Below are positions 24,395-54,821 of a DNA stretch of 64,000 bases, one piece after another. A program made the translations under genes and the position numbers. Under the pieces are notes generated by a model. The model searched no databases, was not told the origin of the DNA, and saw only the letters and a list, made by a program, of their open reading frames with translations. The stretch lies in the NCBI RefSeq assembly GCF_013122565.1, contig NZ_CP053258.1; one strand, written 5' to 3'. The DNA comes from Escherichia coli. Its GTDB lineage: Bacteria > Pseudomonadota > Gammaproteobacteria > Enterobacterales > Enterobacteriaceae. Each line of letters starts with the position of its first letter. The first letter of the stretch is position 1.

Positions 24395-24400
24395 TAATTT

Positions 24401-26841: not shown

Positions 26842-26849
26842 TCATCCCA

Positions 26850-26874: not shown

Positions 26875-26888
26875 AGAAAGGTTACCTT

Positions 26889-29853: not shown

Positions 29854-29854
29854 G

Positions 29855-30568: not shown

Positions 30569-30686
30569 TTTATCAATAACCCGGCAGCTAAGTTCTGCCG
30601 GGTTATTTGTCTGTATACAGACTTGTTTCAACTGACCGGGAGGATTAAAAACTGTCCACTTATTTGCCACGGAAAGGTTCCCTCCC

Positions 30687-31433
30687 ATGCATTATGCCGT
30701 TGTCGCCATGCTTGAAATGCTTTGCTGTATCCACGCTTACCGTACCGGACAAGAGCGATATTGGTTTTTTATCATCTTCTGTTTTCCAGTGATTGGCTGC
30801 GTAGCGTATTTTGTCATGGTGATGCTGCCAGAAACGGGCGCTGACCGTCACGGGCGTACCTTTCTGATGCGCCTGCAGAACAAACTCAACCCTGAGCGCC
30901 ACCTGCGCAAATTAACCGAAGAACTGGCGATTGCCGAGACGAATCAAAACCATTATGCGTTGGCTAATGAACTGGCGCGTCTGGGGCGTTATCACGAAGC
31001 CGTTCCCCATTATCAGCAGGCGTTAAGCGGGATATTCGCCCATGAAGCGGCAATGATGCTAAGCCTGGCGCAGGCACAGTTTGCTATTCAGGAGTTTGCC
31101 GCCTGTCAGCAGACGCTGGAAGATGTGATGCGTTATAACCCTGATTTTCAGTCGGCAGACGGGCATTTGTTATTTGCCAGAACGTTAGCCGCACAAGAAA
31201 AATACGCTGATGCGGAAAGTGAGTTTGAAGTGTTGGTTTCTTATTACCCCGGCCCGCAGGCGCGTATTTACTATGCGGAAATGCTGGCGAAAATGAGTCG
31301 GTTACGTGAAGCCAACGAGCAGTATGTTGCTGTAGTTGATACGGCTAAACGCTCAAGACCTCATTATAGAAAACACCACCGGGAATGGATTAAGACCGCC
31401 AATGAACGGTTGAAGCAGAGTGTGGTGCAATGA
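30687..31433 (+). CDS. Hypothetical membrane protein: N-terminal PLDc_N-like two-TM domain plus cytoplasmic helical (TPR-like) repeat domain
   Basis: 248-aa ORF; N-terminus YWFFIIFCFPVIGCVAYFVMV resembles the PLD-nuclease N-terminal domain family; C-terminus predicted helical. Confidence 0.55.
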   Translation: MHYAVVAMLEMLCCIHAYRTGQERYWFFIIFCFPVIGCVAYFVMVMLPETGADRHGRTFLMRLQNKLNPERHLRKLTEELAIAETNQNHYALANELARLGRYHEAVPHYQQALSGIFAHEAAMMLSLAQAQFAIQEFAACQQTLEDVMRYNPDFQSADGHLLFARTLAAQEKYADAESEFEVLVSYYPGPQARIYYAEMLAKMSRLREANEQYVAVVDTAKRSRPHYRKHHREWIKTANERLKQSVVQ

Positions 31434-31654
31434 AAATCTTCTTTGCCGTTAGGCCAGTGTCGCGGCAATCTTTTGTTAAAATTGAAAAATGTAGCTTTCA
31501 TCGGGCAGCAAAACTGGACGCAGAATTTGCTGCCATTTTTGCTCTTCATGGTAAGGAGTTCTGGCGATTAGCTGGCCGTTAATCGCCTCTTTTCAGTGCA
31601 TTCTCGGGATATCCGTGCCCCATCTCCCATTTTCCCTCACCCGTACCGTCACCG

Positions 31655-31735
31655 CCTTGTCATCTTTCTGACACCTTACTATCTTACAAATGTAACAAAA
31701 AAGTTATTTTTCTGTAATTCGAGCATGTCATGTTA
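31655..31735 (+). promoter_or_regulatory. ugpB promoter region with Pho-box-like repeats
   Basis: cttgtcatctttctgacacc and ctgtaattcgagcatgtcatg resemble the PhoB consensus CTGTCAT-N4-CTGTCAT. Confidence 0.5.
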
Positions 31736-31792
31736 CCCCGCGAGCATAAAACGCGTGAATTCGCGCATTCGGTACAACAAGAGAGATAAACG

Positions 31793-33109
31793 ATGAAACC
31801 GTTACATTATACAGCTTCAGCACTGGCGCTCGGACTGGCGTTAATGGGGAATGCACAGGCAGTGACGACCATTCCGTTCTGGCATTCTATGGAAGGGGAA
31901 CTGGGTAAAGAGGTGGATTCTCTGGCCCAACGTTTTAACGCCGAAAACCCGGATTACAAAATTGTACCGACCTATAAAGGCAACTACGAACAGAATTTAA
32001 GCGCGGGGATTGCCGCATTTCGTACTGGCAACGCTCCGGCTATTTTGCAGGTTTATGAAGTTGGCACCGCCACCATGATGGCATCCAAAGCCATTAAACC
32101 GGTATATGACGTGTTTAAAGAGGCGGGGATTCAATTCGATGAGTCGCAGTTTGTGCCGACGGTTTCCGGTTACTACTCCGACAGCAAAACGGGCCACTTA
32201 CTCTCCCAGCCGTTCAACAGCTCGACTCCCGTTCTCTATTACAACAAAGACGCCTTCAAGAAAGCGGGGTTAGACCCGGAACAGCCGCCGAAAACCTGGC
32301 AGGATCTGGCGGACTATGCCGCAAAACTGAAAGCCTCCGGAATGAAGTGCGGCTACGCCAGCGGCTGGCAGGGCTGGATCCAACTGGAAAACTTTAGCGC
32401 CTGGAACGGTCTGCCGTTTGCCAGCAAAAACAACGGCTTTGACGGCACGGATGCGGTGCTGGAGTTCAACAAGCCGGAGCAGGTGAAACACATCGCCATG
32501 CTCGAAGAGATGAACAAGAAGGGCGATTTCAGCTACGTCGGGCGTAAGGATGAATCCACCGAGAAGTTCTATAACGGTGATTGCGCGATGACCACCGCCT
32601 CTTCCGGTTCTCTCGCTAATATTCGTGAGTACGCCAAATTTAACTATGGCGTAGGCATGATGCCTTACGACGCCGATGCGAAAGATGCACCGCAAAACGC
32701 CATTATCGGCGGGGCCAGCCTGTGGGTGATGCAGGGCAAAGATAAAGAAACGTATACCGGCGTGGCGAAGTTCCTCGACTTCCTCGCGAAGCCAGAAAAC
32801 GCTGCCGAGTGGCATCAGAAAACCGGTTATCTGCCAATCACCAAAGCAGCGTATGACCTGACCCGTGAGCAGGGCTTTTATGAGAAAAACCCAGGGGCGG
32901 ATACCGCGACGCGTCAGATGCTGAACAAGCCGCCGTTGCCGTTCACCAAAGGGCTGCGTCTGGGCAACATGCCGCAGACCCGCGTGATTGTGGATGAAGA
33001 GCTGGAGAGCGTGTGGACCGGTAAGAAGACACCACAGCAGGCACTGGATACCGCCGTTGAGCGTGGGAACCAGTTACTGCGCCGCTTTGAGCAGTCTACG
33101 AAGTCTTAA
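31793..33109 (+). CDS. ugpB: Periplasmic sn-glycerol-3-phosphate-binding protein UgpB
   Basis: 438 aa with signal peptide. Confidence 0.93.
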
Positions 33110-33116
33110 TCAGTGT

Positions 33117-33188
33117 AATGTCGGATGCGTTTCGCTTATCTGACCTGGCATCGCGTGTAGGCCGGATAAGCGAAGCGCATCCGGCACA
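33117..33188. repeat. REP-type palindromic element between ugpB and ugpA
   Basis: gtaggccggataagcgaagcgcatccggca read directly. Confidence 0.65.
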
Positions 33189-33206
33189 GTTCAGGAATTA
33201 ACCGTA

Positions 33207-34094
33207 ATGTCATCATCCCGTCCGGTGTTCCGCTCGCGCTGGCTGCCTTATCTGCTGGTCGCGCCGCAGCTCATCATCACCGTTATCTTTTTTATCTGGC
33301 CTGCGGGCGAAGCGTTGTGGTACTCGCTGCAAAGCGTCGATCCGTTTGGTTTCTCCAGCCAGTTTGTCGGCCTGGATAACTTCGTCGCGCTGTTTCATGA
33401 CAGCTACTATATCGACTCCTTCTGGACGACGATAAAATTCAGCACCTTTGTCACCGTCAGCGGTTTGCTGGTGTCACTGTTCTTCGCGGCGTTGGTGGAG
33501 TACATCGTGCGCGGCAGCCGTTTCTATCAAACCTTGATGCTGCTGCCGTATGCCGTGGCTCCCGCCGTTGCTGCCGTATTGTGGATCTTCCTGTTTAACC
33601 CCGGTCGCGGGCTGATCACCCATTTTCTCGCTGAGTTCGGCTACGACTGGAACCACGCGCAAAACAGCGGTCAGGCAATGTTTCTGGTGGTGTTTGCCTC
33701 GGTGTGGAAGCAAATCAGCTACAACTTTCTGTTCTTCTATGCCGCGCTGCACTCCATTCCCCGTTCGTTGATTGAAGCCGCAGCTATTGACGGCGCAGGG
33801 CCGATTCGCCGCTTCTTTAAGATTGCTCTGCCGCTTATCGCTCCGGTGAGTTTCTTCCTGCTGGTGGTGAACCTGGTGTACGCCTTCTTCGACACCTTCC
33901 CGGTGATCGACGCCGCCACGTCCGGCGGGCCGGTTCAGGCCACCACTACGCTGATTTATAAGATCTACCGCGAAGGCTTTACCGGACTGGATCTGGCTTC
34001 GTCTGCCGCGCAGTCGGTGGTGTTGATGTTCCTCGTCATCGTGCTGACGGTGGTGCAGTTCCGCTATGTTGAAAGCAAGGTGCGTTACCAATGA
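33207..34094 (+). CDS. ugpA: G3P ABC permease UgpA
   Basis: 295 aa multi-TM permease. Confidence 0.93.
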
Positions 34095-34936
34095 TTGAGA
34101 ACCGTCCATGGCTGACAATATTCAGCCATACCATGCTGATCCTCGGGATCGCGGTGATCCTCTTCCCGCTGTACGTGGCGTTTGTCGCGGCGACGCTGGA
34201 TAAACAGGCCGTCTACGCCGCGCCGATGACGCTAATCCCCGGCACGCATCTGCTGGAAAACATCCACAACATCTGGGTAAACGGGGTAGGCACGAATAGT
34301 GCGCCGTTCTGGCGGATGTTACTTAACAGCTTCGTGATGGCGTTCAGCATCACGCTCGGCAAAATTACCGTCTCGATGCTCTCGGCATTTGCCATTGTCT
34401 GGTTTCGTTTTCCACTACGTAACCTCTTCTTCTGGATGATTTTTATCACCCTGATGTTGCCGGTTGAAGTACGTATCTTCCCGACGGTGGAAGTCATCGC
34501 CAACCTGAAGATGCTCGACAGCTACGCAGGTTTAACGCTGCCGCTGATGGCCTCGGCGACCGCGACGTTTCTTTTCCGCCAGTTCTTTATGACCCTACCG
34601 GATGAACTGGTGGAAGCCGCGCGGATCGACGGCGCGTCGCCAATGCGCTTCTTTTGCGACATCGTTTTTCCGTTGTCCAAAACTAATCTGGCGGCGTTGT
34701 TTGTGATCACCTTTATTTACGGCTGGAACCAGTATTTGTGGCCGTTGTTGATTATTACCGACGTGGATCTCGGCACCACCGTGGCAGGGATCAAAGGGAT
34801 GATCGCCACTGGCGAAGGCACCACAGAATGGAACTCGGTGATGGCTGCGATGTTGTTAACGCTGATCCCTCCGGTGGTGATTGTTTTAGTGATGCAGCGT
34901 GCCTTCGTGCGCGGCCTGGTCGATAGTGAGAAATAA
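34091..34936 (+). CDS. ugpE: G3P ABC permease UgpE
   Basis: 281 aa multi-TM permease. Confidence 0.93.
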
Positions 34937-34937
34937 G

Positions 34938-36008
34938 ATGGCAGGACTGAAATTACAGGCAGTAACCAAAAGCTGGGATGGCAAAACCCAGGTGATTAAA
35001 CCGCTGACCCTTGATGTGGCGGATGGCGAATTTATCGTGATGGTCGGGCCGTCTGGCTGCGGGAAATCGACGCTGCTGCGCATGGTTGCCGGGCTGGAGC
35101 GGGTGACCGAAGGCGATATCTGGATCGACCGCAAGCGTGTCACCGAAATGGAGCCGAAAGATCGCGGGATTGCGATGGTGTTCCAGAACTACGCGCTTTA
35201 TCCGCATATGAGTGTTGAAGAAAACATGGCGTGGGGGCTGAAAATTCGCGGCATGGGCAAGCAGCAAATTGCCGAACGGGTTAAAGAAGCGGCGCGTATT
35301 CTGGAGCTGGACGGCCTGCTCAAACGTCGCCCGCGCGAGCTATCTGGCGGTCAGCGCCAGCGTGTGGCGATGGGCCGCGCGATTGTGCGCGATCCGGCGG
35401 TGTTCTTGTTTGATGAGCCGCTCTCTAACCTCGATGCCAAGCTGCGCGTGCAGATGCGTCTTGAACTGCAACAGCTGCACCGTCGCCTGAAAACGACTTC
35501 ACTCTACGTTACTCATGATCAGGTTGAGGCGATGACGCTCGCCCAGCGAGTAATGGTGATGAACGGCGGCGTTGCCGAACAGATTGGCACGCCAGTGGAA
35601 GTTTACGAAAAGCCCGCCAGCCTGTTTGTAGCGAGTTTTATCGGCAGTCCGGCGATGAACCTGCTGACAGGCCGCGTGAATAATGAAGGCACGCATTTCG
35701 AACTGGACGGCGGTATTGTGCTGCCGCTAAACGGTGGCTACCGTCAGTATGCCGGGCGTAAAATGACTCTCGGCATTCGCCCGGAACATATAGCGCTAAG
35801 CTCGCAGGCAGAAGGTGGTGTGCCGCTGGTGATGGACACGCTGGAGATCCTCGGCGCTGATAACCTGGCGCACGGACGCTGGGGCGAACAGAAGCTGGTG
35901 GTACGGCTGGCGCATCAGGAGCGCCCGACGGCAGGCAGCACGCTGTGGCTGCATCTGGCGGAAAATCAGCTGCATCTTTTTGATGGTGAAACAGGACAAC
36001 GAGTATGA
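34938..36008 (+). CDS. ugpC: G3P ABC ATPase UgpC
   Basis: 356 aa from the MAGLKL Met, Walker [10 protein letters not shown]. Confidence 0.92.
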
Positions 36009-36748
36009 GTAACTGGCCTTATCCCCGCATCGTCGCTCATCGTGGCGGCGGTAAGCTGGCCCCCGAAAACACCCTGGCGGCAATCGACGTCGGGGCAAAA
36101 TACGGTCATAAGATGATCGAATTTGACGCGAAGTTATCGAAAGATGGCGAGATCTTTCTGCTCCATGATGACAACCTCGAACGCACCAGCAACGGCTGGG
36201 GCGTCGCGGGTGAACTGAACTGGCAGGATTTACTGCGCGTGGATGCGGGCAGTTGGTACAGCAAAGTGTTTAAAGGTGAGCCGCTGCCGTTGCTTTCGCA
36301 GGTGGCGGAACGCTGTCGTGAACACGGGATGATGGCGAATATCGAAATCAAACCCACCACTGGCACTGGACCATTAACGGGCAAAATGGTGGCGCTGGCG
36401 GCACGCGAACTGTGGGGCGGTATGACGCCGCCGCTGCTGTCATCGTTCGAAATTGATGCTTTAGAAGCCGCACAGCTGGCGGCACCGGAACTGCCGCGTG
36501 GTTTATTGCTTGATGAATGGCGCGACGACTGGCGAGAACTGACCGCGCGGCTGGGCTGCGTCTCTATTCATCTCAATCATAAGTTACTCGATAAAGCGCG
36601 AGTGATGCAGTTGAAAGACGCCGGATTACGGATTCTGGTTTATACCGTCAATAAACCCCAGCGCGCGGCAGAGTTGCTGCGCTGGGGCGTGGATTGCATC
36701 TGTACCGATGCGATTGACGTGATTGGTCCGAACTTTACGGCCCAATAG
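36005..36748 (+). CDS. ugpQ: Glycerophosphodiester phosphodiesterase UgpQ
   Basis: 247 aa with HRGG active-site motif. Confidence 0.92.
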
Positions 36749-37175
36749 TTTTCAACGGAATGTCAGGCTGCGGCGTGCTGGGCTGATTCAGCATGTCGCC
36801 GTTTCTCCTCTCCGGCAGCATATGCTGCTGATTCAACGAACTATCCGGATTACGGTTGCTGTTTAACATCCCGCCGTTGGTGTTGGGCAGCATTTGCTGC
36901 CGGGCGGGATTTCGCTCCCCCGGCTGTGACTGCAACACCCGCTGAGAATTATTGTTTATCTGGTTTTCTAAATGCTGCTGTTGCAACTGAGTTTGCGTTT
37001 TCAGTTGCTGATTCAGCATCCCTTTTTGCTGGATTTGCTGCGTTTGCATCTGGGTTTGCATCCGCTGCTGGCTGGGGATCTGATATCCCGGCTGGTTGGG
37101 GTTATTCAGAGTATTAATGGGCTGTGCAAAGCCGACAAACGGCAGGAGTGCCGTAAGAATCAGAAGTCGTTTCAT
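36735..37175 (-). CDS. yhhA: Gln-rich secreted protein YhhA
   Basis: 146 aa with signal peptide and Q-rich low-complexity body. Confidence 0.85.
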
Positions 37176-37294
37176 CGCGTATCCTCCTCTGAAGATATCC
37201 TTTAAGTTTACTCGCTTCCCGACAAAACGATGATTAATTCAGAGTTATATACCAGGCTTAGCTGGGGTTGCCCCTTAATCTCTGGAGAATAACG

Positions 37295-39037
37295 ATGATA
37301 AAACCGACGTTTTTACGCCGGGTGGCCATTGCTGCTCTGCTCTCAGGAAGTTGTTTTAGCGCCGCCGCCGCGCCTCCTCCGCCACCTGTTTCTTATGGCG
37401 TGGAGGAAGATGTCTTCCATCCGGTACGCGCGAAACAGGGGATGGTGGCGTCTGTCGATGCCACTGCCACCCAAGTGGGGGTAGATATTCTAAAGGAGGG
37501 CGGGAATGCCGTTGATGCTGCCGTGGCAGTGGGCTACGCGCTGGCGGTAACGCATCCGCAAGCAGGGAATCTGGGCGGTGGTGGTTTTATGCTGATCCGC
37601 TCGAAAAATGGCAACACCACGGCTATCGATTTCCGCGAAATGGCACCCGCCAAAGCGACCCGCGATATGTTCCTCGATGATCAGGGCAACCCGGACAGCA
37701 AAAAATCACTCACTTCGCATCTGGCTTCCGGCACGCCCGGTACGGTAGCAGGTTTCTCGCTGGCGTTGGATAAATACGGCACCATGCCGTTGAACAAAGT
37801 GGTGCAACCGGCGTTTAAACTGGCACGCGATGGTTTTATCGTTAACGACGCGCTGGCTGACGATCTCAAAACCTACGGCAGTGAAGTGCTGCCGAATCAC
37901 GAAAACAGCAAGGCTATCTTCTGGAAAGAGGGCGAACCGCTGAAAAAGGGCGACACGCTGGTGCAGGCGAACCTGGCAAAGAGCCTGGAGATGATTGCTG
38001 AAAACGGCCCGGACGAATTCTATAAAGGCACGATTGCGGAACAGATCGCCCAGGAGATGCAGAAAAACGGTGGCTTGATCACTAGAGAAGATTTAGCGGC
38101 CTATAAAGCGGTGGAACGTACACCGATTAGCGGCGAATATCGCGGGTATCAGGTTTACTCGATGCCACCGCCATCTTCCGGTGGGATTCATATCGTGCAG
38201 ATCCTCAATATCCTGGAAAACTTCGATATGAAGAAATACGGCTTTGGCAGTGCCGACGCGATGCAAATCATGGCAGAAGCCGAGAAATATGCCTACGCCG
38301 ACCGCTCGGAATATCTTGGCGACCCGGATTTTGTCAAAGTCCCGTGGCAGGCGTTGACCAATAAAGCCTATGCCAAATCTATTGCCGATCAAATAGATAT
38401 CAATAAAGCGAAGCCATCCAGCGAAATTCGTCCTGGCAAGCTTGCGCCTTATGAGAGTAATCAAACTACCCATTACTCAGTGGTGGATAAAGACGGTAAC
38501 GCGGTGGCGGTGACCTATACGCTGAACACCACCTTCGGTACGGGCATTGTCGCGGGCGAGAGCGGTATTCTGCTTAATAACCAGATGGATGATTTCTCCG
38601 CCAAACCGGGCGTACCGAACGTTTACGGGCTGGTGGGCGGTGATGCCAACGCCGTCGGGCCGAATAAACGCCCGCTGTCATCGATGTCACCAACCATTGT
38701 GGTGAAAGACGGTAAAACCTGGTTAGTGACTGGTAGCCCAGGCGGTAGCCGGATCATCACTACCGTGCTGCAAATGGTGGTGAATAGCATCGATTATGGT
38801 ATGAATGTCGCCGAAGCGACCAATGCACCGCGTTTCCACCATCAATGGTTGCCGGACGAGCTGCGTGTCGAAAAAGGGTTTAGCCCGGATACGCTCAAGC
38901 TGCTGGAAGCAAAAGGTCAGAAAGTGGCGCTGAAAGAGGCGATGGGCAGTACACAAAGCATTATGGTTGGGCCGGACGGTGAGTTGTACGGCGCATCCGA
39001 CCCGCGCTCGGTGGATGATTTAACGGCGGGTTATTAA
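37295..39037 (+). CDS. ggt: Gamma-glutamyltranspeptidase
   Basis: 580 aa from the MIKPTF Met with signal peptide; GGT family. Confidence 0.93.
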   Translation: MIKPTFLRRVAIAALLSGSCFSAAAAPPPPPVSYGVEEDVFHPVRAKQGMVASVDATATQVGVDILKEGGNAVDAAVAVGYALAVTHPQAGNLGGGGFMLIRSKNGNTTAIDFREMAPAKATRDMFLDDQGNPDSKKSLTSHLASGTPGTVAGFSLALDKYGTMPLNKVVQPAFKLARDGFIVNDALADDLKTYGSEVLPNHENSKAIFWKEGEPLKKGDTLVQANLAKSLEMIAENGPDEFYKGTIAEQIAQEMQKNGGLITREDLAAYKAVERTPISGEYRGYQVYSMPPPSSGGIHIVQILNILENFDMKKYGFGSADAMQIMAEAEKYAYADRSEYLGDPDFVKVPWQALTNKAYAKSIADQIDINKAKPSSEIRPGKLAPYESNQTTHYSVVDKDGNAVAVTYTLNTTFGTGIVAGESGILLNNQMDDFSAKPGVPNVYGLVGGDANAVGPNKRPLSSMSPTIVVKDGKTWLVTGSPGGSRIITTVLQMVVNSIDYGMNVAEATNAPRFHHQWLPDELRVEKGFSPDTLKLLEAKGQKVALKEAMGSTQSIMVGPDGELYGASDPRSVDDLTAGY

Positions 39038-39043
39038 TATCTT

Positions 39044-39070
39044 AAGCCCTCTCCCGGTAGGTGAGGGCTT
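39044..39070. terminator. Bidirectional terminator hairpin between convergent ggt and yhhY
   Basis: aagccctc...gagggctt inverted repeat. Confidence 0.5.
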
Positions 39071-39097
39071 AAATGACAAACTTAGATTGCAAATTAT

Positions 39098-39586
39098 CTA
39101 TTTCACCCGCGCCATATAATACGCATCGACATATTCACCATTACGAAAAGCGTAATTTTTGCCGGTGCCTTCTATGTGAAATCCCAATTTTTTATAGACT
39201 GTGATTGCCGGGGCGTTATCCGCAAACACCGTCAACTCAATACGATCTATCCGTAACCAGTTGTCGCACATTTCAATCAATTCGCGGATCAGGGCGCTGG
39301 CGATGCCGCGGTTGTGCCAGCGGGAGTCAACACAGATACCAAAAGTTGCAACATGACTGCGGCGTGGGCCTTGATAAGCCTCAATGAAAAGATGACCCAC
39401 TACGATGCCATCAATGCAGGCAACCAGTTGTTTAAAACCTTGGCGATCTTTCAATCTTTCTGGCCACCAGCCTTCCGAAGGATGAGGTAGTTGTAGCGTG
39501 TTGCAATACACCTCCGGCTGGGCGTGAATCTGCCTGATGGCCTCGTAATCGCGCGTTTCAGCATGGCGTATCACTATCTCACTCAT
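39098..39586 (-). CDS. yhhY: GNAT N-acetyltransferase YhhY
   Basis: 162 aa from the MSEIVIRHA Met. Confidence 0.88.
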   Translation of the reverse strand: MSEIVIRHAETRDYEAIRQIHAQPEVYCNTLQLPHPSEGWWPERLKDRQGFKQLVACIDGIVVGHLFIEAYQGPRRSHVATFGICVDSRWHNRGIASALIRELIEMCDNWLRIDRIELTVFADNAPAITVYKKLGFHIEGTGKNYAFRNGEYVDAYYMARVK

Positions 39587-39683
39587 TCCTTTGTCCTCTT
39601 TGGGGTAAATGTCCCTTTCAACATCATTGACTTTCAAATGCGAGTCAAATGCATTTTTTTGCAAAAAGTGTTGGACAAGTGCG

Positions 39684-39705
39684 AATGAGAATGATTATTA
39701 TTGTC
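39684..39705 (+). promoter_or_regulatory. Fur box in the ryhB promoter
   Basis: aatgagaatgattattattgtc resembles the Fur consensus gataatgataatcattatc, immediately upstream of ryhB. Confidence 0.65.
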
Positions 39706-39707
39706 TC

Positions 39708-39800
39708 GCGATCAGGAAGACCCTCGCGGAGAACCTGAAAGCACGACATTGCTCACATTGCTTCCAGTATTACTTAGCCAGCCGGGTGCTGGCTTTTTTT
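39708..39800 (+). ncRNA. ryhB: Iron-responsive small RNA RyhB
   Basis: Sequence matches remembered RyhB (gcgatcaggaagaccctcgcggagaacctgaaagcacgacattgctcacattgcttccagtattacttagccagccgggtgctggctttt), ending in a hairpin plus T-run, in the yhhY-yhhX intergenic region. Confidence 0.88.
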
Positions 39801-39918
39801 TTGATCTTTCGTTCTCAATTTATCCACGGGAGTGCTTGTGTTCGTTATGCGCACTCCAGTAGGAACCACGTCCGCTTTGCGCTAAGGTGTAAATAACCAC
39901 CTTAAAAAGGACGAAATC

Positions 39919-40956
39919 ATGGTCATCAACTGCGCCTTTATTGGCTTCGGCAAAAGCACCACCCGTTACCATCTGCCGTATGTACTTAACCGCAAGGATA
40001 GCTGGCATGTCGCGCATATTTTTCGCCGCCATGCAAAGCCGGAAGAACAAGCTCCCATTTACTCTCATATCCATTTCACCAGCGATCTCGACGAAGTGCT
40101 AAACGATCCCGATGTTAAGCTGGTTGTTGTCTGCACCCATGCGGACAGCCACTTCGAGTACGCGAAGCGCGCGCTGGAAGCCGGGAAAAATGTGCTGGTC
40201 GAAAAACCGTTCACCCCGACGCTTGCCCAGGCGAAAGAGCTGTTTGCTCTGGCGAAAAGTAAAGGGCTGACCGTCACGCCATATCAGAATCGTCGCTTTG
40301 ATTCCTGCTTCCTGACGGCGAAAAAAGCGATTGAAAGCGGCAAGCTGGGAGAGATTGTCGAAGTGGAAAGCCATTTTGACTATTACCGCCCGGTGGCAGA
40401 AACCAAACCTGGGCTGCCGCAGGATGGCGCGTTCTATGGCCTTGGTGTGCATACGATGGACCAGATTATTTCTCTGTTCGGTCGCCCGGATCACGTCGCT
40501 TATGACATCCGCAGCCTGCGTAATAAAGCCAATCCTGACGACACCTTTGAAGCGCAGCTGTTTTATGGCGACCTGAAAGCCATCGTCAAAACCAGCCATC
40601 TGGTGAAAATCGATTATCCGAAATTTATCGTTCACGGTAAGAAAGGTTCGTTTATTAAATACGGTATCGACCAGCAGGAAACCAGCCTGAAGGCTAATAT
40701 TATGCCGGGCGAACCGGGATTCGCAGCGGATGATTCGGTCGGTGTGCTGGAGTATGTCAATGACGAGGGTGTGACGGTCAGAGAAGAGATGAAGCCAGAG
40801 ATGGGCGATTACGGGCGCGTTTATGATGCGTTGTATCAAACCATCACCAACGGTGCGCCAAATTACGTCAAGGAATCTGAAGTTCTTACCAATCTGGAAA
40901 TCCTTGAACGCGGATTCGAGCAAGCCTCTCCCTCCACAGTGACTCTCGCGAAGTAA
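39919..40956 (+). CDS. yhhX: Gfo/Idh/MocA-family oxidoreductase YhhX
   Basis: 345 aa. Confidence 0.9.
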   Translation: MVINCAFIGFGKSTTRYHLPYVLNRKDSWHVAHIFRRHAKPEEQAPIYSHIHFTSDLDEVLNDPDVKLVVVCTHADSHFEYAKRALEAGKNVLVEKPFTPTLAQAKELFALAKSKGLTVTPYQNRRFDSCFLTAKKAIESGKLGEIVEVESHFDYYRPVAETKPGLPQDGAFYGLGVHTMDQIISLFGRPDHVAYDIRSLRNKANPDDTFEAQLFYGDLKAIVKTSHLVKIDYPKFIVHGKKGSFIKYGIDQQETSLKANIMPGEPGFAADDSVGVLEYVNDEGVTVREEMKPEMGDYGRVYDALYQTITNGAPNYVKESEVLTNLEILERGFEQASPSTVTLAK

Positions 40957-41078
40957 GTTTGATGGCCCCTCGAATAGTTCAATTTTTTTGAACAGAGGGG
41001 TCAATTTTCACCCTCTATCATCCCAGGCAGATCGGGTCCACACTAAGCCCATCGAAATCATTCAGGGGGCGAATACAA

Positions 41079-41774
41079 ATGATCTACTTACGCAAAGCAA
41101 ATGAACGTGGTCATGCAAATCATGGCTGGCTGGACTCCTGGCATACTTTCTCTTTTGCCAACTATTACGATCCGAACTTTATGGGCTTCTCCGCGCTGCG
41201 CGTGATTAACGACGACGTGATTGAAGCAGGACAGGGCTTCGGCACTCACCCGCATAAAGATATGGAGATTTTGACCTACGTGCTGGAAGGTACTGTTGAG
41301 CATCAGGACAGCATGGGCAATAAAGAGCAGGTTCCGGCGGGTGAGTTCCAGATTATGAGTGCGGGTACGGGTATTCGTCACTCAGAGTACAACCCAAGCA
41401 GCACCGAGCGTCTGCATCTGTATCAGATCTGGATCATGCCTGAAGAAAACGGTATTACGCCGCGTTATGAACAGCGTCGCTTCGATGCCGTACAGGGCAA
41501 ACAGCTGGTGCTCTCGCCGGATGCGCGAGATGGTTCATTGAAAGTGCATCAGGATATGGAACTGTATCGTTGGGCGTTGCTGAAAGATGAGCAGTCGGTG
41601 CATCAGATTGCCGCTGAACGCCGCGTCTGGATCCAGGTGGTGAAAGGCAATGTCACCATTAACGGCGTGAAAGCCTCGACCAGCGATGGTCTGGCAATCT
41701 GGGATGAGCAGGCGATCTCCATCCATGCGGATAGCGACAGCGAAGTGTTACTGTTCGATCTGCCGCCGGTTTAA
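41079..41774 (+). CDS. yhhW: Pirin-like quercetin 2,3-dioxygenase YhhW
   Basis: 231 aa cupin-fold protein. Confidence 0.9.
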   Translation: MIYLRKANERGHANHGWLDSWHTFSFANYYDPNFMGFSALRVINDDVIEAGQGFGTHPHKDMEILTYVLEGTVEHQDSMGNKEQVPAGEFQIMSAGTGIRHSEYNPSSTERLHLYQIWIMPEENGITPRYEQRRFDAVQGKQLVLSPDARDGSLKVHQDMELYRWALLKDEQSVHQIAAERRVWIQVVKGNVTINGVKASTSDGLAIWDEQAISIHADSDSEVLLFDLPPV

Positions 41775-41997
41775 AACTCAACGGCATCTTTGAAGCCTGC
41801 CTTTTTGCAGGCTTCCTCGCTCGCTCCGGTCGCGTGCTGATGTACGCTTCCGGGGTTTTGCCGCGTCGTTAGCACAATGCGATGCAATTGATTTAGTGTA
41901 TATCTAATAATTGTAAACAAGCACTGTTTTCCCCGGGAAGGTTCTGATGCGTCCGTGTTAAACTAAGAGAATCTATCTCTTTTGTACCTTCAGGACG

Positions 41998-42993
41998 ATG
42001 AAAAAGAAAAGACCCGTACTTCAGGATGTGGCTGACCGTGTAGGCGTGACCAAAATGACGGTCAGCCGTTTTTTACGCAACCCGGAGCAGGTTTCCGTCG
42101 CTCTACGCGGCAAGATTGCCGCCGCTCTTGATGAACTGGGCTATATTCCCAATCGTGCGCCCGATATCCTCTCTAACGCCACCAGCCGGGCGATTGGCGT
42201 CCTGTTACCTTCTCTCACCAACCAGGTTTTCGCGGAAGTATTACGCGGAATCGAAAGCGTCACCGACGCGCACGGTTATCAGACCATGCTGGCGCACTAC
42301 GGTTATAAACCGGAAATGGAGCAAGAACGCCTCGAATCCATGCTCTCATGGAATATCGACGGCCTGATCCTCACCGAACGTACCCACACGCCGCGCACCT
42401 TAAAGATGATTGAAGTGGCGGGTATTCCCGTGGTGGAACTGATGGACAGCAAGTCGCCATGCCTCGATATTGCCGTCGGTTTTGATAACTTTGAAGCAGC
42501 ACGCCAGATGACCACTGCCATTATTGCTCGCGGGCATCGCCACATTGCCTATCTCGGCGCACGTCTCGACGAACGTACTATCATCAAACAGAAGGGGTAC
42601 GAACAGGCGATGCTGGATGCAGGTCTGGTGCCGTATAGCGTGATGGTTGAGCAATCTTCTTCTTATTCTTCCGGTATTGAACTGATTCGCCAGGCGCGGC
42701 GGGAATATCCGCAGCTGGATGGCGTGTTCTGTACCAACGATGACCTGGCGGTCGGCGCGGCGTTTGAATGTCAACGTCTGGGGTTGAAAGTTCCTGACGA
42801 TATGGCGATTGCCGGTTTCCACGGTCATGACATTGGTCAGGTGATGGAGCCACGACTGGCGAGCGTGCTTACGCCGCGTGAGCGGATGGGCAGTATTGGC
42901 GCTGAACGCCTGCTGGCGCGTATTCGTGGCGAATCTGTGACACCGAAAATGTTAGATTTAGGTTTCACCTTGTCACCGGGCGGATCTATTTAA
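41998..42993 (+). CDS. gntR: Gluconate repressor GntR (LacI family)
   Basis: 331 aa with N-terminal HTH (VTKMTVSRFLRNP). Confidence 0.93.
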   Translation: MKKKRPVLQDVADRVGVTKMTVSRFLRNPEQVSVALRGKIAAALDELGYIPNRAPDILSNATSRAIGVLLPSLTNQVFAEVLRGIESVTDAHGYQTMLAHYGYKPEMEQERLESMLSWNIDGLILTERTHTPRTLKMIEVAGIPVVELMDSKSPCLDIAVGFDNFEAARQMTTAIIARGHRHIAYLGARLDERTIIKQKGYEQAMLDAGLVPYSVMVEQSSSYSSGIELIRQARREYPQLDGVFCTNDDLAVGAAFECQRLGLKVPDDMAIAGFHGHDIGQVMEPRLASVLTPRERMGSIGAERLLARIRGESVTPKMLDLGFTLSPGGSI

Positions 42994-43072
42994 GCCCACA
43001 AATTTGAAGTAGCTCACACTTATACACTTAAGGCACGGATGGATATTGCTTCTGATATTGTCCGGCCGGACA

Positions 43073-43101
43073 ATGTTACCGATAACAGTTACCAGTAACA
43101 T
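43073..43101 (+). promoter_or_regulatory. GntR operator (overlapping palindromes) in the gntK promoter
   Basis: atgttaccgataacagttaccagtaacat read directly, about 30 bp upstream of gntK. Confidence 0.7.
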
Positions 43102-43131
43102 TTTTAATTCTTGTATTGTGGGGGCACCACT

Positions 43132-43659
43132 TTGAGCACGACTAACCATGATCACCACATTTACGTCTTGATGGGCGTATCGGGCAGCGGCAAATCTGCG
43201 GTCGCCAGTGAAGTGGCGCATCAACTTCATGCCGCGTTTCTTGATGGCGATTTCCTCCATCCACGGCGCAATATCGAAAAAATGGCGTCTGGCGAACCGC
43301 TGAATGACGACGATCGCAAACCGTGGTTGCAGGCGCTGAACGACGCCGCGTTTGCTATGCAGCGCACTAATAAAGTGTCGCTGATCGTCTGTTCTGCATT
43401 GAAAAAACACTATCGCGACTTGCTGCGTGAAGGTAATCCGAATCTCTCTTTCATCTACCTGAAAGGCGATTTTGATGTGATTGAAAGCCGCCTGAAAGCG
43501 CGCAAAGGCCATTTCTTTAAAACCCAAATGTTGGTGACGCAGTTTGAAACGCTGCAGGAGCCGGGTGCGGACGAAACCGATGTACTGGTGGTAGATATCG
43601 ATCAACCGCTGGAAGGTGTTGTGGCAAGCACCATTGAGGTTATTAAAAAAGGCAAATAA
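43132..43659 (+). CDS. gntK: Thermoresistant gluconokinase GntK
   Basis: 175 aa from an in-frame TTG, P-loop GVSGSGKS. Confidence 0.9.
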   Translation: MSTTNHDHHIYVLMGVSGSGKSAVASEVAHQLHAAFLDGDFLHPRRNIEKMASGEPLNDDDRKPWLQALNDAAFAMQRTNKVSLIVCSALKKHYRDLLREGNPNLSFIYLKGDFDVIESRLKARKGHFFKTQMLVTQFETLQEPGADETDVLVVDIDQPLEGVVASTIEVIKKGK

Positions 43660-43662
43660 GTA

Positions 43663-45003
43663 GTGACTACATTAACGCTTGTTTTAACAGCAGTAGGGTC
43701 TGTTTTACTGCTGCTGTTTTTAGTCATGAAGGCGCGTATGCACGCTTTCCTGGCTTTGATGGTGGTGTCCATGGGGGCTGGCCTTTTTTCCGGTATGCCG
43801 CTCGATAAAATCGCAGCGACGATGGAAAAAGGGATGGGAGGCACCCTCGGCTTCCTGGCGGTGGTTGTCGCCCTGGGAGCTATGTTTGGCAAGATCTTAC
43901 ATGAAACCGGCGCAGTCGATCAGATTGCCGTCAAAATGCTCAAATCCTTCGGTCACAGCCGCGCGCATTATGCCATCGGCCTTGCGGGGCTGGTCTGTGC
44001 GCTACCGCTGTTCTTTGAAGTGGCGATTGTTCTGCTGATTAGCGTTGCTTTCTCAATGGCGCGCCACACCGGTACGAACCTGGTGAAGCTGGTAATCCCA
44101 TTATTTGCAGGCGTGGCGGCAGCGGCTGCGTTCCTGGTGCCTGGACCAGCGCCAATGCTGCTGGCATCGCAGATGAACGCCGATTTTGGCTGGATGATCC
44201 TGATTGGCCTGTGTGCGGCAATTCCGGGAATGATTATTGCTGGGCCGCTGTGGGGTAACTTTATCAGCCGTTACGTTGAGCTGCATATTCCTGACGACAT
44301 CAGCGAACCGCATCTCGGCGAAGGCAAAATGCCATCTTTCGGATTCAGCCTGTCGCTGATCCTGTTGCCGCTGGTGCTGGTGGGGCTGAAAACCATTGCC
44401 GCGCGTTTTGTGCCAGAAGGCTCTACCGCTTACGAATGGTTCGAGTTTATTGGTCATCCGTTTACCGCGATTCTGGTTGCTTGTCTGGTGGCGATTTACG
44501 GTCTGGCAATGCGTCAGGGCATGCCAAAAGACAAAGTGATGGAGATTTGCGGTCACGCGCTGCAACCGGCGGGGATCATTCTGCTGGTGATTGGTGCAGG
44601 CGGCGTGTTCAAACAGGTGCTGGTTGACTCTGGCGTAGGTCCGGCACTCGGCGAAGCGTTAACCGGCATGGGCCTGCCGATTGCCATCACCTGCTTCGTG
44701 CTGGCAGCGGCGGTGCGCATCATTCAGGGGTCTGCCACCGTTGCCTGCTTAACGGCGGTAGGACTGGTAATGCCGGTCATTGAACAACTGAACTACTCCG
44801 GTGCGCAAATGGCGGCGCTGTCGATTTGTATCGCCGGTGGTTCGATTGTTGTCAGCCACGTTAACGACGCTGGTTTCTGGTTGTTCGGTAAATTTACCGG
44901 CGCGACCGAAGCCGAAACGCTGAAAACCTGGACCATGATGGAAACCATCCTCGGCACTGTCGGTGCCATCGTTGGGATGATTGCGTTCCAGCTGTTGAGT
45001 TAA
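43663..45003 (+). CDS. gntU: Low-affinity gluconate transporter GntU
   Basis: 446 aa GntP-family permease, GTG start. Confidence 0.92.
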   Translation: MTTLTLVLTAVGSVLLLLFLVMKARMHAFLALMVVSMGAGLFSGMPLDKIAATMEKGMGGTLGFLAVVVALGAMFGKILHETGAVDQIAVKMLKSFGHSRAHYAIGLAGLVCALPLFFEVAIVLLISVAFSMARHTGTNLVKLVIPLFAGVAAAAAFLVPGPAPMLLASQMNADFGWMILIGLCAAIPGMIIAGPLWGNFISRYVELHIPDDISEPHLGEGKMPSFGFSLSLILLPLVLVGLKTIAARFVPEGSTAYEWFEFIGHPFTAILVACLVAIYGLAMRQGMPKDKVMEICGHALQPAGIILLVIGAGGVFKQVLVDSGVGPALGEALTGMGLPIAITCFVLAAAVRIIQGSATVACLTAVGLVMPVIEQLNYSGAQMAALSICIAGGSIVVSHVNDAGFWLFGKFTGATEAETLKTWTMMETILGTVGAIVGMIAFQLLS

Positions 45004-45015
45004 TTACTGCGACAA

Positions 45016-45050
45016 ATTACTGCGAGCTTGCTCGCAGTAATTCATTTCTC
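45016..45050 (+). terminator. Rho-independent terminator of gntU
   Basis: Perfect 12-bp stem attactgcgagc/gctcgcagtaat followed by T-rich sequence. Confidence 0.6.
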
Positions 45051-45142
45051 TTTTCTCCTCTCTTCATCTTTTTGATCTCTCTCGCAAATTTACCTGCTAA
45101 TAATCCGTTCTAATCACTGCCTAAAGATCGCAGGAGATAAAG

Positions 45143-47239
45143 ATGGAAAAGCACGGAGCTGAATTGCTTTTACAGCGGATGTTAGGCAATACCACCGCTA
45201 CTTTCAGGGAAGGTCAATGGGAAGCCATGGACGCGGTGGTGAACCGACGGCGAAAACTGCTGGTTGTCCAACGCACTGGCTGGGGGAAAAGCGCCGTGTA
45301 CTTCATCTCCAGTAAAATCTTCCGCGATCGCGGCGCTGGCCCGACAATTATCATCTCTCCTTTGCTTGCCCTGATGCGTAACCAGGTTGCCGCCGCTGAA
45401 CGGTTAGGTATTACGGCTGAAACGTTGAATTCTACAAACAGGGAAGAATGGCAGCGCATTAGCGATAAGTTGCTGCAAGGTGCGGTCGATTGCTTGCTGG
45501 TTTCCCCGGAACGTTTGGCAAACCAGGACTTTATCGAAACGGTTTTATATCCTATAGCCGATCGTATTGGTTTGCTTGTGGTCGACGAGGCGCACTGCAT
45601 CTCTGATTGGGGCCACGATTTTCGCCCGGATTACCGACGTATATTAGATATTTTGCGCCAACTGCCTGCGAATACCCCTGTTCTGGGTACAACCGCGACA
45701 GCGAATAACCGTGTCGTTGAGGATATCCGTCAGCAATTGGGTGACATTGTGATTCAGCGTGGAACGCTGGCTCGCGAAAGTTTGGCGCTTGATGCCTTAG
45801 TCTTAGGTGAACAGTCATCCCGTCTGGCATGGTTAGCAACGGTTATCCCTCAGTTTTCCAAATCGGGAATTGTTTATACCCTGACTACTCGCGATGCCGA
45901 ACTTGTCGCCGAGTGGTTAAGGACAAATGGTATCAGTGCATTTGCTTACTACAGCGGCGTGACTTGTGAAGGCGCGGAAGATTCTAATACTGCCAGGGAA
46001 TATCTGGAGCAGGCGCTGCTGGCAAATAAAATCAAAGTGCTGGTCGCGACGACGGCATTAGGTATGGGGTTTGATAAACCTGATTTAGGTTTCGTCATTC
46101 ATTATCAAATGCCGGGGTCTATTGTCGGTTACTACCAACAGGTAGGGCGTGCCGGGCGTGCTATAGATTCCGCTGTTGGCATATTGCTTTGTGGTGGTGA
46201 AGACCGCGCTATTCATAAATTCTTCCGTGAAAGCGCCTTTCCTGCGGAGGCGCAAATTCATGAAATACTCAACGTACTTAGCGAGAATGACGGTCTTACC
46301 CTACGAGGCATTGAACAACGGACGAATCTCCGTTATGGGCAAATAGAAAAAGCACTGAAATTATTGGTAGCTGAAAATCCATCGCCTGTGGTGTATACCG
46401 AGAAATTATGGCGCAGAACTATCGTCAGTTTCTCTCCTGACCATGAACGAATTAACCATTTGATGAATCAGAGAAAAAGTGAGCTGGCAGACGTTGAAAG
46501 CTATGTCACGACCAAGGAGTGCAAAATGCAATTTCTGCGCCGCGCACTCGATGAGCCAAGTGCCGAACGTTGTGGTAAATGTAGCAGTTGTCTTCAGCAT
46601 CCGTTGTTGTCGCCCGATATTGATAGCGGCTTACTCCATGCGGCAAATTTATTTATTAAACACGCTGACCTGCCATTAAATCTCAATAAACAGGTAGCAT
46701 CTGGGGCTTTTACGCAATACGGATTTAAAGGGAACTTGCCTGCGGGTTTACAAGGATCTACGGGGCGAGTCCTTTCTCGTTGGGGAGATTCCGGGTGGGG
46801 AAAGCAGGTAGCACAGGAGAAAAAAACGGGGCGATTCAGTGATGAGCTGGTGGAGGCATGTGCGGAAATGGTTCGCCAACGCTGGAATCCGCATCCTGAA
46901 CCAACCTGGGTATGCTGCGTTCCTTCATTAAGGCACCTCGACCTGGTTCCTAATTTTGCCCGGCGACTGGCGGCGAAACTTGGCTTACCTTTTATTGATG
47001 CCATTGAAAAAGTCGTGGACAATCCACCGCAGAAAATGCAGCAAAACCGTTTTCACCAGTGTCAAAATCTCGACGGGGCGTTTGTGATTACCCCTCCTTT
47101 GATGCCAGGTCCGGCGTTGCTGGTTGACGATATCGTGGATTCTGCATGGACGCTGACAGTTCTGACAGCACTGTTACGCCAGGCAGGTTGCCCGACGGTT
47201 TATCCTCTTGCCCTTGCTTCTACCTCGGTAAAAAATTGA
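45143..47239 (+). CDS. RecQ-family DNA helicase fused to a C-terminal phosphoribosyltransferase-like domain (PsyrT/RqlH-like toxin or effector candidate)
   Basis: 698 aa with helicase motifs QRTGWGKS, VVDEAHCISDWGHDFRPDY, VLGTTATAN, VLVATTALGMGFDKPD, YYQQVGRAGR; Cys cluster CKMQ...CGKCSSC; C-terminal LLVDDIVDSAWTLTV PRTase-type motif. Confidence 0.75.
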   Translation: MEKHGAELLLQRMLGNTTATFREGQWEAMDAVVNRRRKLLVVQRTGWGKSAVYFISSKIFRDRGAGPTIIISPLLALMRNQVAAAERLGITAETLNSTNREEWQRISDKLLQGAVDCLLVSPERLANQDFIETVLYPIADRIGLLVVDEAHCISDWGHDFRPDYRRILDILRQLPANTPVLGTTATANNRVVEDIRQQLGDIVIQRGTLARESLALDALVLGEQSSRLAWLATVIPQFSKSGIVYTLTTRDAELVAEWLRTNGISAFAYYSGVTCEGAEDSNTAREYLEQALLANKIKVLVATTALGMGFDKPDLGFVIHYQMPGSIVGYYQQVGRAGRAIDSAVGILLCGGEDRAIHKFFRESAFPAEAQIHEILNVLSENDGLTLRGIEQRTNLRYGQIEKALKLLVAENPSPVVYTEKLWRRTIVSFSPDHERINHLMNQRKSELADVESYVTTKECKMQFLRRALDEPSAERCGKCSSCLQHPLLSPDIDSGLLHAANLFIKHADLPLNLNKQVASGAFTQYGFKGNLPAGLQGSTGRVLSRWGDSGWGKQVAQEKKTGRFSDELVEACAEMVRQRWNPHPEPTWVCCVPSLRHLDLVPNFARRLAAKLGLPFIDAIEKVVDNPPQKMQQNRFHQCQNLDGAFVITPPLMPGPALLVDDIVDSAWTLTVLTALLRQAGCPTVYPLALASTSVKN

Positions 47240-48441
47240 TGAATCTTTCAGCCAATGCACAAGCAACTCTCCTGCTAACCAGCGATTTTTCTCGCGCGGC
47301 GGCGAGTGAGTATAACCCTCTTAGTAATAGTGAATGGGGGAAGTTTGCATTATGGCTGAAGCACCAACGTATCAGTCCCGCCGATCTTCTGGTGCCGCAA
47401 CCGCAAGAGAAACTTACAGGCTGGAGCGATCCGCGTATTTCTCAGGAGCGTATTCTTGGCTTGCTGGCGCGTGGTCATAGTCTGGCGTTGGCGGTAGATA
47501 AGTGGCAACGCGCCGGTTTATGGATCTTAACCCGCGGAGATGCCGATTATCCCGTTCGCTTGAAAAACCGATTGCGAACGGATGCACCTCCCGTTTTATT
47601 TGGCTGTGGGAATAAAGCATTACTGCAAGCGGAAGGTATGGCGATTGTTGGCTCGCGAGATGCTCCGACTGACGATTTGCGCTATACCCAACAACTGGCC
47701 GCGAAACTGGCCCAACAGGGGATTTGCGTTATCTCTGGTGGTGCGCGAGGTATTGATGAATGTGCAATGGCGTCGGCACTGGAGGCCGGGGGAACTGCCG
47801 TTGGCGTATTAGCTGATAGCTTGTTAAAAACGAGCACGTTAGTGAAATGGCGTGAAGGGCTTATAGCAGGCAACCTGGTGTTGATTTCGCCGTTTTACCC
47901 AGAGGTACGTTTCACTGTCGGCAATGCGATGGCGCGGAATAAATATATTTATTGCCTTGCTGAAAGCGCAATGGTTGTACGTGCGGGAATGTCCGGTGGA
48001 ACGATAACCGGGGCGATGGAAGCATTAAAACATCAGTGGCTGCCTGTGCAGGTTAAACCAAATCAGGATATGCAATCAGCCAATTCACGATTAGTAGAAA
48101 ATGGGGCGTCATGGAGTACTGAACAGGCTGAGAATGTGACGTTCAGACTGCCAGACGTTACTGGGCTGATTTATGACAAAGCACTCCGTAACGCTCAACC
48201 AGAACTGTTTTCGCTGCATGAAGATGACGCAAATTACGCAGTAATGCCCGCGCATACGCCTGTCGATTTTTATCAACTCTTTGTGGCGGAACTGGCGATC
48301 CTTGCAAAGGAATCGATAAGTATTGAAAGGCTGGCGTCTTGTACTGGTTTAACCATCGAACAAATTCGTGTGTGGCTGAACCGCGCAGAAGAAGAGGGAA
48401 GGGTTATTCGATTGGGCGAAGGTCATTATCAGTTCAGGTAA
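47239..48441 (+). CDS. DprA/Smf-like (SLOG Rossmann) protein, PsyrA/RqlI/ShosA-like antitoxin or partner candidate
   Basis: 400 aa from the ATG overlapping the upstream stop (tTGATG at 47237-47241); DprA-type core GSRDAPTDD...ISGGARGIDECAMASAL...GGTAVGVLADSL...FTVGNAMARNKYIYCLA. Confidence 0.7.
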   Translation: MNLSANAQATLLLTSDFSRAAASEYNPLSNSEWGKFALWLKHQRISPADLLVPQPQEKLTGWSDPRISQERILGLLARGHSLALAVDKWQRAGLWILTRGDADYPVRLKNRLRTDAPPVLFGCGNKALLQAEGMAIVGSRDAPTDDLRYTQQLAAKLAQQGICVISGGARGIDECAMASALEAGGTAVGVLADSLLKTSTLVKWREGLIAGNLVLISPFYPEVRFTVGNAMARNKYIYCLAESAMVVRAGMSGGTITGAMEALKHQWLPVQVKPNQDMQSANSRLVENGASWSTEQAENVTFRLPDVTGLIYDKALRNAQPELFSLHEDDANYAVMPAHTPVDFYQLFVAELAILAKESISIERLASCTGLTIEQIRVWLNRAEEEGRVIRLGEGHYQFR

Positions 48442-48444
48442 TAA

Positions 48445-48480
48445 AACAGGTGCCGCGTCTGGTTGTGTGCAGCACCTGTT
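48445..48480. terminator. Hairpin between the DprA-like gene and convergent yhgN; bidirectional terminator candidate
   Basis: aacaggtgc...gcacctgtt inverted repeat, T-rich flank on the minus strand. Confidence 0.45.
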
Positions 48481-48486
48481 TGAACC

Positions 48487-49080
48487 TTACCCCTTCATCC
48501 ACATTCGAATGCCGTCGAGGAACATCTGGGTTGCCATCATCACCAGAATCAATCCCATCAGGCGTTCAAGTGCGTTCACCCCTTTCTCGCCCAGCAGACG
48601 TAAAAATAGCGAAGACTGTAGCAGGATGACAAAGGTGCCGCCCCAGGCCAGCAGCAGAGCAATCACCAGATGTCCCATCTGATTCGGGTACTGATGAGAC
48701 AACAACATCAGCGTGGCGAGAATAGTCGGCCCGGCGACTAACGGAATTGCCAACGGCACGATAAACGGCTCTTCACCTGCCGGAAGCCCGCTGCTATTTC
48801 CTGAAGCGCTGGGAAAAATCATCTTAATGGCGATCAGAAACAGAATGATGCCGCCAGAAATGGAGACGGTTTCTGCTCGCAGGCTGAGAAATGCCAGAAT
48901 TTTCTCACCCGCAAACAGGAACACCAGCATCACCAGGAGAGCAATAAGCAACTCTCGCACCATGATTGCCCGCCGTCTTTTCGGTTCAGTATGTTTCAGT
49001 ACGGACATGAAAATAGGTAGGTTTCCGAGCGGATCCATAATCAGGATCAATAAAACTGCTGCAGAAATGATTTCATTCAT
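48487..49080 (-). CDS. yhgN: MarC-family membrane protein YhgN
   Basis: 197 aa multi-TM protein. Confidence 0.88.
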   Translation of the reverse strand: MNEIISAAVLLILIMDPLGNLPIFMSVLKHTEPKRRRAIMVRELLIALLVMLVFLFAGEKILAFLSLRAETVSISGGIILFLIAIKMIFPSASGNSSGLPAGEEPFIVPLAIPLVAGPTILATLMLLSHQYPNQMGHLVIALLLAWGGTFVILLQSSLFLRLLGEKGVNALERLMGLILVMMATQMFLDGIRMWMKG

Positions 49081-49271
49081 AACTCAAATTCCCTGATAAT
49101 TGCCGCGGACTTTCTGCGTGCTAACAAAGCAGGATAAGTCGCATTACTGATGGCTTCGCTATCATTGATTAATTTCACTTGCGACTTTGGCTGCTTTTTG
49201 TATGGTGAAAGATGTGCCAAGAGGAGACCGGCACATTTATACAGCACACATCTTTGCAGGAAAAAACGCTT

Positions 49272-54804: not shown

Positions 54805-54821
54805 TAAAAAAGGAGTTAGTC

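Follow-up and report, generated by a model that had tools for sequence, protein, structure and literature searches.

The short interval between yhhY and yhhX in this window of Escherichia coli DNA (by the window we mean the whole stretch analyzed, 64,000 nucleotides) raises the question of whether it holds the small RNA gene ryhB and its Fur box intact, or whether changes in the surrounding sequence have reached them. An earlier reading made from the letters alone, which we call the sequence-only reading, had placed RyhB there and considered it and its Fur box intact despite a flanking rearrangement. We conclude, with a probability of about 98%, that positions 39672-39802 (+) are the orthologous E. 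coli ryhB locus, encoding an Hfq-dependent small RNA of roughly 90-95 nt behind a sigma-70 promoter whose -10 hexamer lies under a Fur box. RyhB at this place is already known, and the copy found here is ordinary, intact and in its canonical position.

The family assignment is unambiguous. The Rfam RyhB model (RF00057) matches window positions 39737-39801 (+) with 83.1 bits against a gathering score of 55 (E = 3.6e-14), and the match spans the full model (positions 1-67 of 67); a comparison with this model was the check that the sequence-only reading had itself proposed. At gathering thresholds, an Rfam 15 scan of the 64-kb window gave no match besides RyhB, and in a permissive local scan RyhB was again the sole meaningful match, the rest being noise. 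Two weaker hits at the locus were rejected: CRISPR-DR53 (20 bits) is sub-threshold and was treated as noise, and with 21.3 bits against a gathering score of 90 (E = 0.74) the sequence is not a member of the PrrF RNA family (RF00444).

Alignment places MG1655 ryhB (b4451, 3580922..3581016, -) at window 39708-39802 (+) with 100% identity. The entire yhhY-yhhX intergenic region of 332 bp shows 0 differences from MG1655, and from 39573 to 40025 no base differs from K-12, a span that includes the -35 hexamer, the Fur boxes, the -10 hexamer, the RNA and the terminator. The gene order, yhhY(-)/ryhB(+)/yhhX(+), is the same as in MG1655. Together, the Rfam match, the mapping to MG1655 and the synteny confirm the earlier placement of RyhB on the plus strand between yhhY and yhhX, and the unchanged intergenic region agrees with its description of RNA and Fur box as intact. 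The interval given for them, 39684-39800, was right within a few bases; it starts 12 nt too late to take in the -35 hexamer and ends before the final two T's of the terminator tail. Feature coordinates are collected in Table 1.

Table 1. Features of the ryhB locus, its neighboring genes, and the blocks of the window that are colinear with MG1655.
Feature	Window position	Strand	MG1655 position	Basis or remark
ryhB promoter -35 hexamer TGGACA	39672-39677	+		sigma-70 consensus scan
Second, weaker Fur-box match	39681-39699	.		14/19 (5 mismatches), offset 6 bp upstream
Main Fur box GAGAATGATTATTATTGTC	39687-39705	.		16/19 to consensus in one orientation, 15/19 in the other; overlaps -10
ryhB promoter -10 hexamer TATTAT	39696-39701	+		consensus scan; start site 39708, 7 nt after
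ryhB sRNA gene	39708-39802	+		K-12 annotated extent, 95 nt; identical to b4451
Variable 5' stem-loop of RyhB	39712-39738	+		predicted, MFE fold and 13-genus consensus fold
Invariant RyhB core GCACGACATTGCTCACATTGCTTCCAGT, target-pairing region	39741-39768	+		exact 28-nt conservation
Rho-independent terminator and U-tail, Hfq-binding 3' module	39776-39802	+		terminator scan, MFE fold
yhhY, GNAT N-acetyltransferase	39098-39586	-		intact 162-aa ORF; Pfam Acetyltransf_1, 61 bits
yhhX, oxidoreductase	39919-40956	+		345-aa ORF; yhhX annotation in matching genomes
Colinear block	1-1642		3627320-3625679	
Colinear block	2460-12683		3618996-3608760	
Colinear block	13887-23978		3608644-3598555	
Colinear block	24922-30569		3598370-3592723	
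Colinear block	31610-39037		3592508-3585081	
Colinear block	39095-45003		3581630-3575721	
Colinear block	48487-60366		3575664-3563784	

PGAP-annotated E. coli RefSeq records carry no feature over ryhB although the sequence is present and identical, and the gene is unannotated in most records other than K-12. Because RefSeq/PGAP annotation generally omits ryhB, an Rfam pass is needed to label it.

Read along the plus strand from 39660 to 39810, the locus consists of the TGGACA of the -35 hexamer, the A/T-rich GAGAATGATTATTATTGTC, and then GCGATCAGGAAGACC...GCACGACATTGCTCACATTGCTTCCAGTATTACTTAGCCAGCCGGGTGCTGGCTTTTTTTTT. A consensus scan returned a single sigma-70 promoter for ryhB, with 10 of 12 consensus positions matched and a spacer of 18 nt; identity of these hexamers to those of K-12 suggests that they function as a promoter here as well. 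The block around the -35 hexamer, GACAAGTGCGAATGAGAATGATTATTATTG, hardly varies among 13 enterobacterial genera.

The upstream element described in the sequence-only reading as Fur-box-like is a close match to the Fur box consensus, the 19-bp palindrome GATAATGATAATCATTATC, with three mismatches in one orientation and four in the other. No further site in the 64 kb of the window has four or fewer mismatches, and 100 dinucleotide-preserving shuffles produced 0 matches with three or fewer. Together, the main box and the weaker match upstream of it span -27 to -3 relative to the start site, and their position over the -10 hexamer is the geometry that would be expected for repression by promoter occlusion. 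In K-12, the ryhB Fur site was scored at 25.2 bits at -15 and confirmed by gel shift, and this strong site is overlapped by weaker ones (Chen et al., 2007; PMC2189734). The weaker match in the window fits this published cluster of a strong site with overlapping weaker sites.

The RNA itself folds, in the minimum free energy (MFE) prediction, into the 5' hairpin, a small hairpin inside the core and the terminator. The core is the part of RyhB that pairs with sodB and other target mRNAs. The terminator hairpin named in the sequence-only reading is present as a stem at 39776-39794 (AGCCAGC-CGGGT-GCTGGCT; seven pairs, five of them G-C, with a 5-nt loop), followed by a T-run to 39802. Shuffled sequences are predicted to fold just as stably (z = 0.16), so the MFE is no evidence either way. 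No ORF of at least 50 aa overlaps the ryhB interval on the minus strand; two plus-strand ORFs (95 aa and 53 aa) overlap it, neither of which is annotated in K-12, where the sequence is identical.

RyhB directs an iron-sparing response through pairing of its core with target mRNAs, translational block and mRNA decay. This response is also summarized in PMC2189734. At the present locus, Fe2+-Fur would sit on its box when iron is plentiful and block transcription; when iron becomes scarce, Fur would leave and RyhB would be made from the sigma-70 promoter, with transcription stopping at the GC-rich hairpin and U-tail. Hfq would bind the 3' U-tail of RyhB and the adjacent A/U-rich stretch, and the invariant single-stranded core would pair with mRNAs of non-essential iron-using proteins (sodB, sdhCDAB, acnB and others), blocking their translation and exposing them to degradation by RNase E, so that iron is spared. 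The binding of Hfq requires the 3'-terminal poly-U of RyhB (PMC4509938). For the window copy, Fur binding, the iron response, Hfq dependence and target repression are what K-12 work on the identical sequence would predict; we infer repression of sodB, sdhCDAB and similar targets because the sequence is identical to the experimentally characterized K-12 gene.

A different view of the same elements is that the locus mainly supplies a ryhB-yhhX co-transcript with its Fur-controlled promoter and its 5' leader, so that readthrough would make yhhX iron-regulated and the small RNA would be one product among others. The layout allows for this: yhhX is co-oriented with ryhB and starts 117 nt past its terminator, with no strong promoter-like site between, and the Fur site was in fact first ascribed to yhhX (PMC2189734). 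In growing cells the ryhB terminator lets through about 20% of transcripts, and co-transcription of ryhB and yhhX has been proposed, although according to the authors it was never shown (PMC4509938). Against it, termination at ryhB is enhanced under the inducing stress, and 3'-extended RyhB loses Hfq binding (PMC4509938). The spacer between the two genes is also less conserved than ryhB: in strain 14EC033 it is changed at positions 39826 and 39831, and the corresponding sequences of E. albertii and of other genera could not be aligned to it. We therefore regard the co-transcript as an unlikely account of what the locus is mainly for, and one that would supplement the function of the small RNA rather than replace it. 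The spacer (39803-39918) contains a weak hairpin at 39825-39840, which may bear on the proposed readthrough.

The reading of the locus as a small RNA gene can be set against a broad sample of genomes. Of 5426 complete E. coli genomes, 5424 contain a match to a 371-bp intergenic query; it is invariably chromosomal, with a median of one copy. For the 139 bp of promoter and ryhB (39664-39802), identity is 99% or higher in 5413 of the 5424, and the 371-bp query drops to 95-99% identity in 2159 genomes; since the shorter segment is near-constant while the longer one varies, the variation lies outside the ryhB gene. Strain 14EC033 follows this pattern, differing from the window at 39610, 39636, 39826 and 39831 and nowhere in the promoter or ryhB.

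Beyond E. coli, a perfect match to the 28-nt core was counted at at least 120 loci in species-representative genomes, spread over three orders (Enterobacterales, together with Aeromonas and Vibrionaceae). Among the matches listed, 112 of 116 copies are preceded by a Fur-box match with no more than five mismatches in the 100 nt before the core; as a control, pieces of equal length drawn at random from these loci typically give 8-10 mismatches. The 13-genus enterobacterial alignment shows no change in the promoter/Fur block, the core or the terminator stem, and variation in the 5' hairpin and terminator loop.

The structural evidence differs between the near and the distant relatives. The 13 Enterobacteriaceae sequences show no compensatory pairs, and their 5' stem-loop has one-sided changes only, so that support within this family comes from sequence conservation and not from covariation. 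RNAalifold applied to 92 unique sequences did not recover the terminator, as differences in loop length broke the alignment. When the 3' segments were folded separately, the terminator stem proved to be kept in other genera through the compensatory variants GCCCGC/GCGGGC and GCCGGC/GCCGGC, in which the fourth pair changes from A-U to C-G or G-C. The stem of the window is the majority form (72 of 98 copies).

Identity to K-12 carries less weight. Divergence from K-12 has a median of 1.3% per 150-bp bin, with 62 of 345 bins free of differences, and six identical runs in the window exceed the 453-bp one that contains ryhB. We therefore dropped the 0 differences in 332 bp, set against flanks that diverge by about 3%, as a statistically striking result; a lack of divergence from K-12 is by itself no proof of selection. 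The case for a probable constraint on ryhB rests on the survey of 5,424 genomes.

The same survey bears on the idea that the window holds a second, paralogous RyhB copy instead of the true ortholog. Salmonella, Yersinia, Serratia and Photorhabdus carry two RyhB copies, and the exact core occurs at two loci in many genera, Yersinia, Photorhabdus and Serratia among them; yet the window has one RyhB match only, E. coli genomes have a median of one place each, and the copy, which does not differ from K-12 ryhB, lies in the canonical place between yhhY and yhhX; all this makes paralogy exceedingly improbable. Two exact-core loci were also observed in Pantoea, Pectobacterium and Erwinia, with E. coli generally having one, and Salinivibrio has two exact-core copies in tandem, about 300 bp apart.

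With the orthologous ryhB gene in place, what remains is the flanking rearrangement, and here the earlier description holds in part. Segments have been gained and lost around the locus and yhhY is divergent, but there is no inversion or translocation. In a BLAST comparison of the whole window with MG1655 3,555,000-3,630,000, none was found, and all blocks follow one order and one (inverted) orientation (Table 1). The window differs from K-12 through insertions and deletions at conserved junctions. The suggestion that ryhB could serve as an anchor for backbone identity and orientation is thus well founded, the window being colinear with MG1655 at about 3.564-3.627 Mb, inverted. We regard the locus as a dependable anchor for position and orientation, with little importance beyond annotation.

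The change nearest to ryhB is at the ggt|yhhY junction, where the window has 57 bp (39038-39094) and K-12 has 3.45 kb. The K-12 block missing here contains yhhZ (Hcp/TssD-like), yrhA interrupted by IS1E, yrhD and yrhB. The island-less junction is contiguous in 1232 of the 5426 complete E. coli genomes, and ggt, yhhY and ryhB are contiguous in E. albertii, Leclercia, Phytobacter and Enterobacter. This distribution, in many E. coli genomes and in other genera, indicates that K-12 is derived: the arrangement in the window is most likely ancestral and K-12 carries an insertion.

The gene on the other side of that junction is the one mildly unusual thing near ryhB. Counted from a gapped alignment with a 1-bp indel near 39099, yhhY has 91 differences from MG1655 in 490 bp, a nucleotide divergence of 18.6%, compared to 2.8% for yhhX, in which a single amino acid differs. 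No other stretch of the window departs as far from K-12, and the three top 150-bp bins (15-24% against the median given above) lie in it. The allele is intact and under purifying selection, with a dN/dS of 0.13, a dS of about 0.8 and 137 of 163 aligned protein positions identical to K-12. In a sample of Escherichia that does not include E. fergusonii, E. marmotae, E. ruysiae or E. whittamii, its identity to the yhhY of K-12, of E. coli N3, of E. albertii and of another Escherichia representative is about 82%, and those four alleles share 90-93% with one another. Among the 5426 E. coli genomes the allele is rare: only six records match 38800-39600 at 99% identity or above, and lowering the cut-off to 95% gives 85. 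Strain 14EC033 has the same allele, with three differences in the coding sequence, and its ugp-ggt flank differs by 2-7% from the window.

The dense divergence in yhhY stops near 39497. The pattern suggests that recombination replaced the allele, with a breakpoint within the 5' part of yhhY and with ryhB left untouched, and the replacing allele probably came from an unsampled relative. One could go further and propose that the ryhB promoter and gene form the fixed right edge of a recombination hot spot at ggt-yhhY, which exchanges the yhhZ-yrhB (orphan Hcp/T6SS-type) island and whole yhhY alleles among E. coli lineages. We offer this as a tentative possibility that we would not presently favor; if it were true, the yhhY allele would be an ancient polymorphism or an import from an unsampled Escherichia relative, and ryhB would be unaffected.

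These flanking changes are what might lead one to see a decayed or silenced remnant with damaged regulation, for example through loss of an upstream element, as the last yhhY difference (39572) is 100 bp from the -35 hexamer and the K-12 island is missing about 0.6 kb upstream of the ryhB promoter; but 39573-40025 is without any change from K-12, regulatory elements included, and the island-less configuration is common and appears ancestral, so we give decay almost no credence. The intact ryhB gene and its Fur-controlled promoter are very constant even beside a replaced yhhY allele of such divergence.

The window is clearly from an E. coli chromosome, taking the species broadly, and is about 97% identical to K-12 and 92.6% identical to E. 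albertii. For the 19 kb from 31000 to 50000, the best match among 5,426 complete E. coli genomes is 97.8%; as no complete genome exceeds this value, the window may derive from an under-sampled E. coli lineage, or the region may be strongly mosaic.

Several other junctions of the window carry segments that differ from K-12. Between gntU and yhgN the window has 3.5 kb that K-12 lacks (45143-48441, +), with genes for a RecQ-family helicase of 698 aa and a DprA-like protein of 431 aa. They match PADLOC PsyrT (1063 bits) and PsyrA (664 bits), a known toxin-antitoxin/anti-phage pair, and the PsyrT/PsyrA island is found at the same site in many E. coli genomes. Between nikR and yhhJ (1715-2346, +) there is a HicA/HicB toxin-antitoxin pair (Pfam HicA_toxin and HicB), at a site that in K-12 holds a 6.7-kb rhsB-yhhH-yrhC-yhhI block. 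An insertion of about 0.9 kb between livJ and panZ (24128-24928, +) encodes a TacA-like antitoxin (Pfam TacA1, 90 bits) and a GNAT acetyltransferase, and looks like a TacAT-type toxin-antitoxin pair.

Two further insertions relative to K-12 have less characteristic contents. The one between livF and ugpB (30687-31433, +; about 1 kb) encodes a TPR-repeat protein of 248 aa that has a hydrophobic segment at its N terminus. The one between tusA and zntA (12683-13887; about 1.2 kb) has a hydrophobic ORF of 105 aa (12899-13216, +) and an ORF of 164 aa (13276-13770, -) that matches nothing in Pfam. At the end of the window, the segment 60366-64000 has low GC content (0.42) and no match in the yzgL-glpD region of MG1655. 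Its ORFs are consecutive: the first (60235-61650) matches Pfam PBP_like_2, those at 61676-62677 and 62674-62952 share obvious motifs with it, and several small secreted-looking ORFs come after. This segment looks like a horizontally acquired island.

Among known systems, Pseudomonas PrrF1 and PrrF2 (RF00444) are functional analogues of RyhB, being Fur-repressed iron-sparing small RNAs, and have no real sequence or structure match to the RyhB of the window. The RyhB RNAs of other Enterobacterales, Aeromonas and Vibrionaceae, which include Salmonella RfrA/RfrB and Yersinia RyhB1/2, share with it the 28-nt core, the upstream Fur box and the GC-rich terminator with its U-tail. They vary in the 5' stem-loop, the terminator loop and the flanking genes, and many genera have two copies, unlike the single copy here. 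The 5' end of the window RyhB is of the Escherichia type, and the RNA is identical to that of E. albertii except for the length of the T-run. With K-12 RyhB (b4451) it shares the same promoter, Fur box, RNA and terminator, as well as the neighbors yhhY and yhhX and all orientations; the two differ in context only, the window having a rare, divergent yhhY allele and the yhhZ-yrhB island being absent from it.
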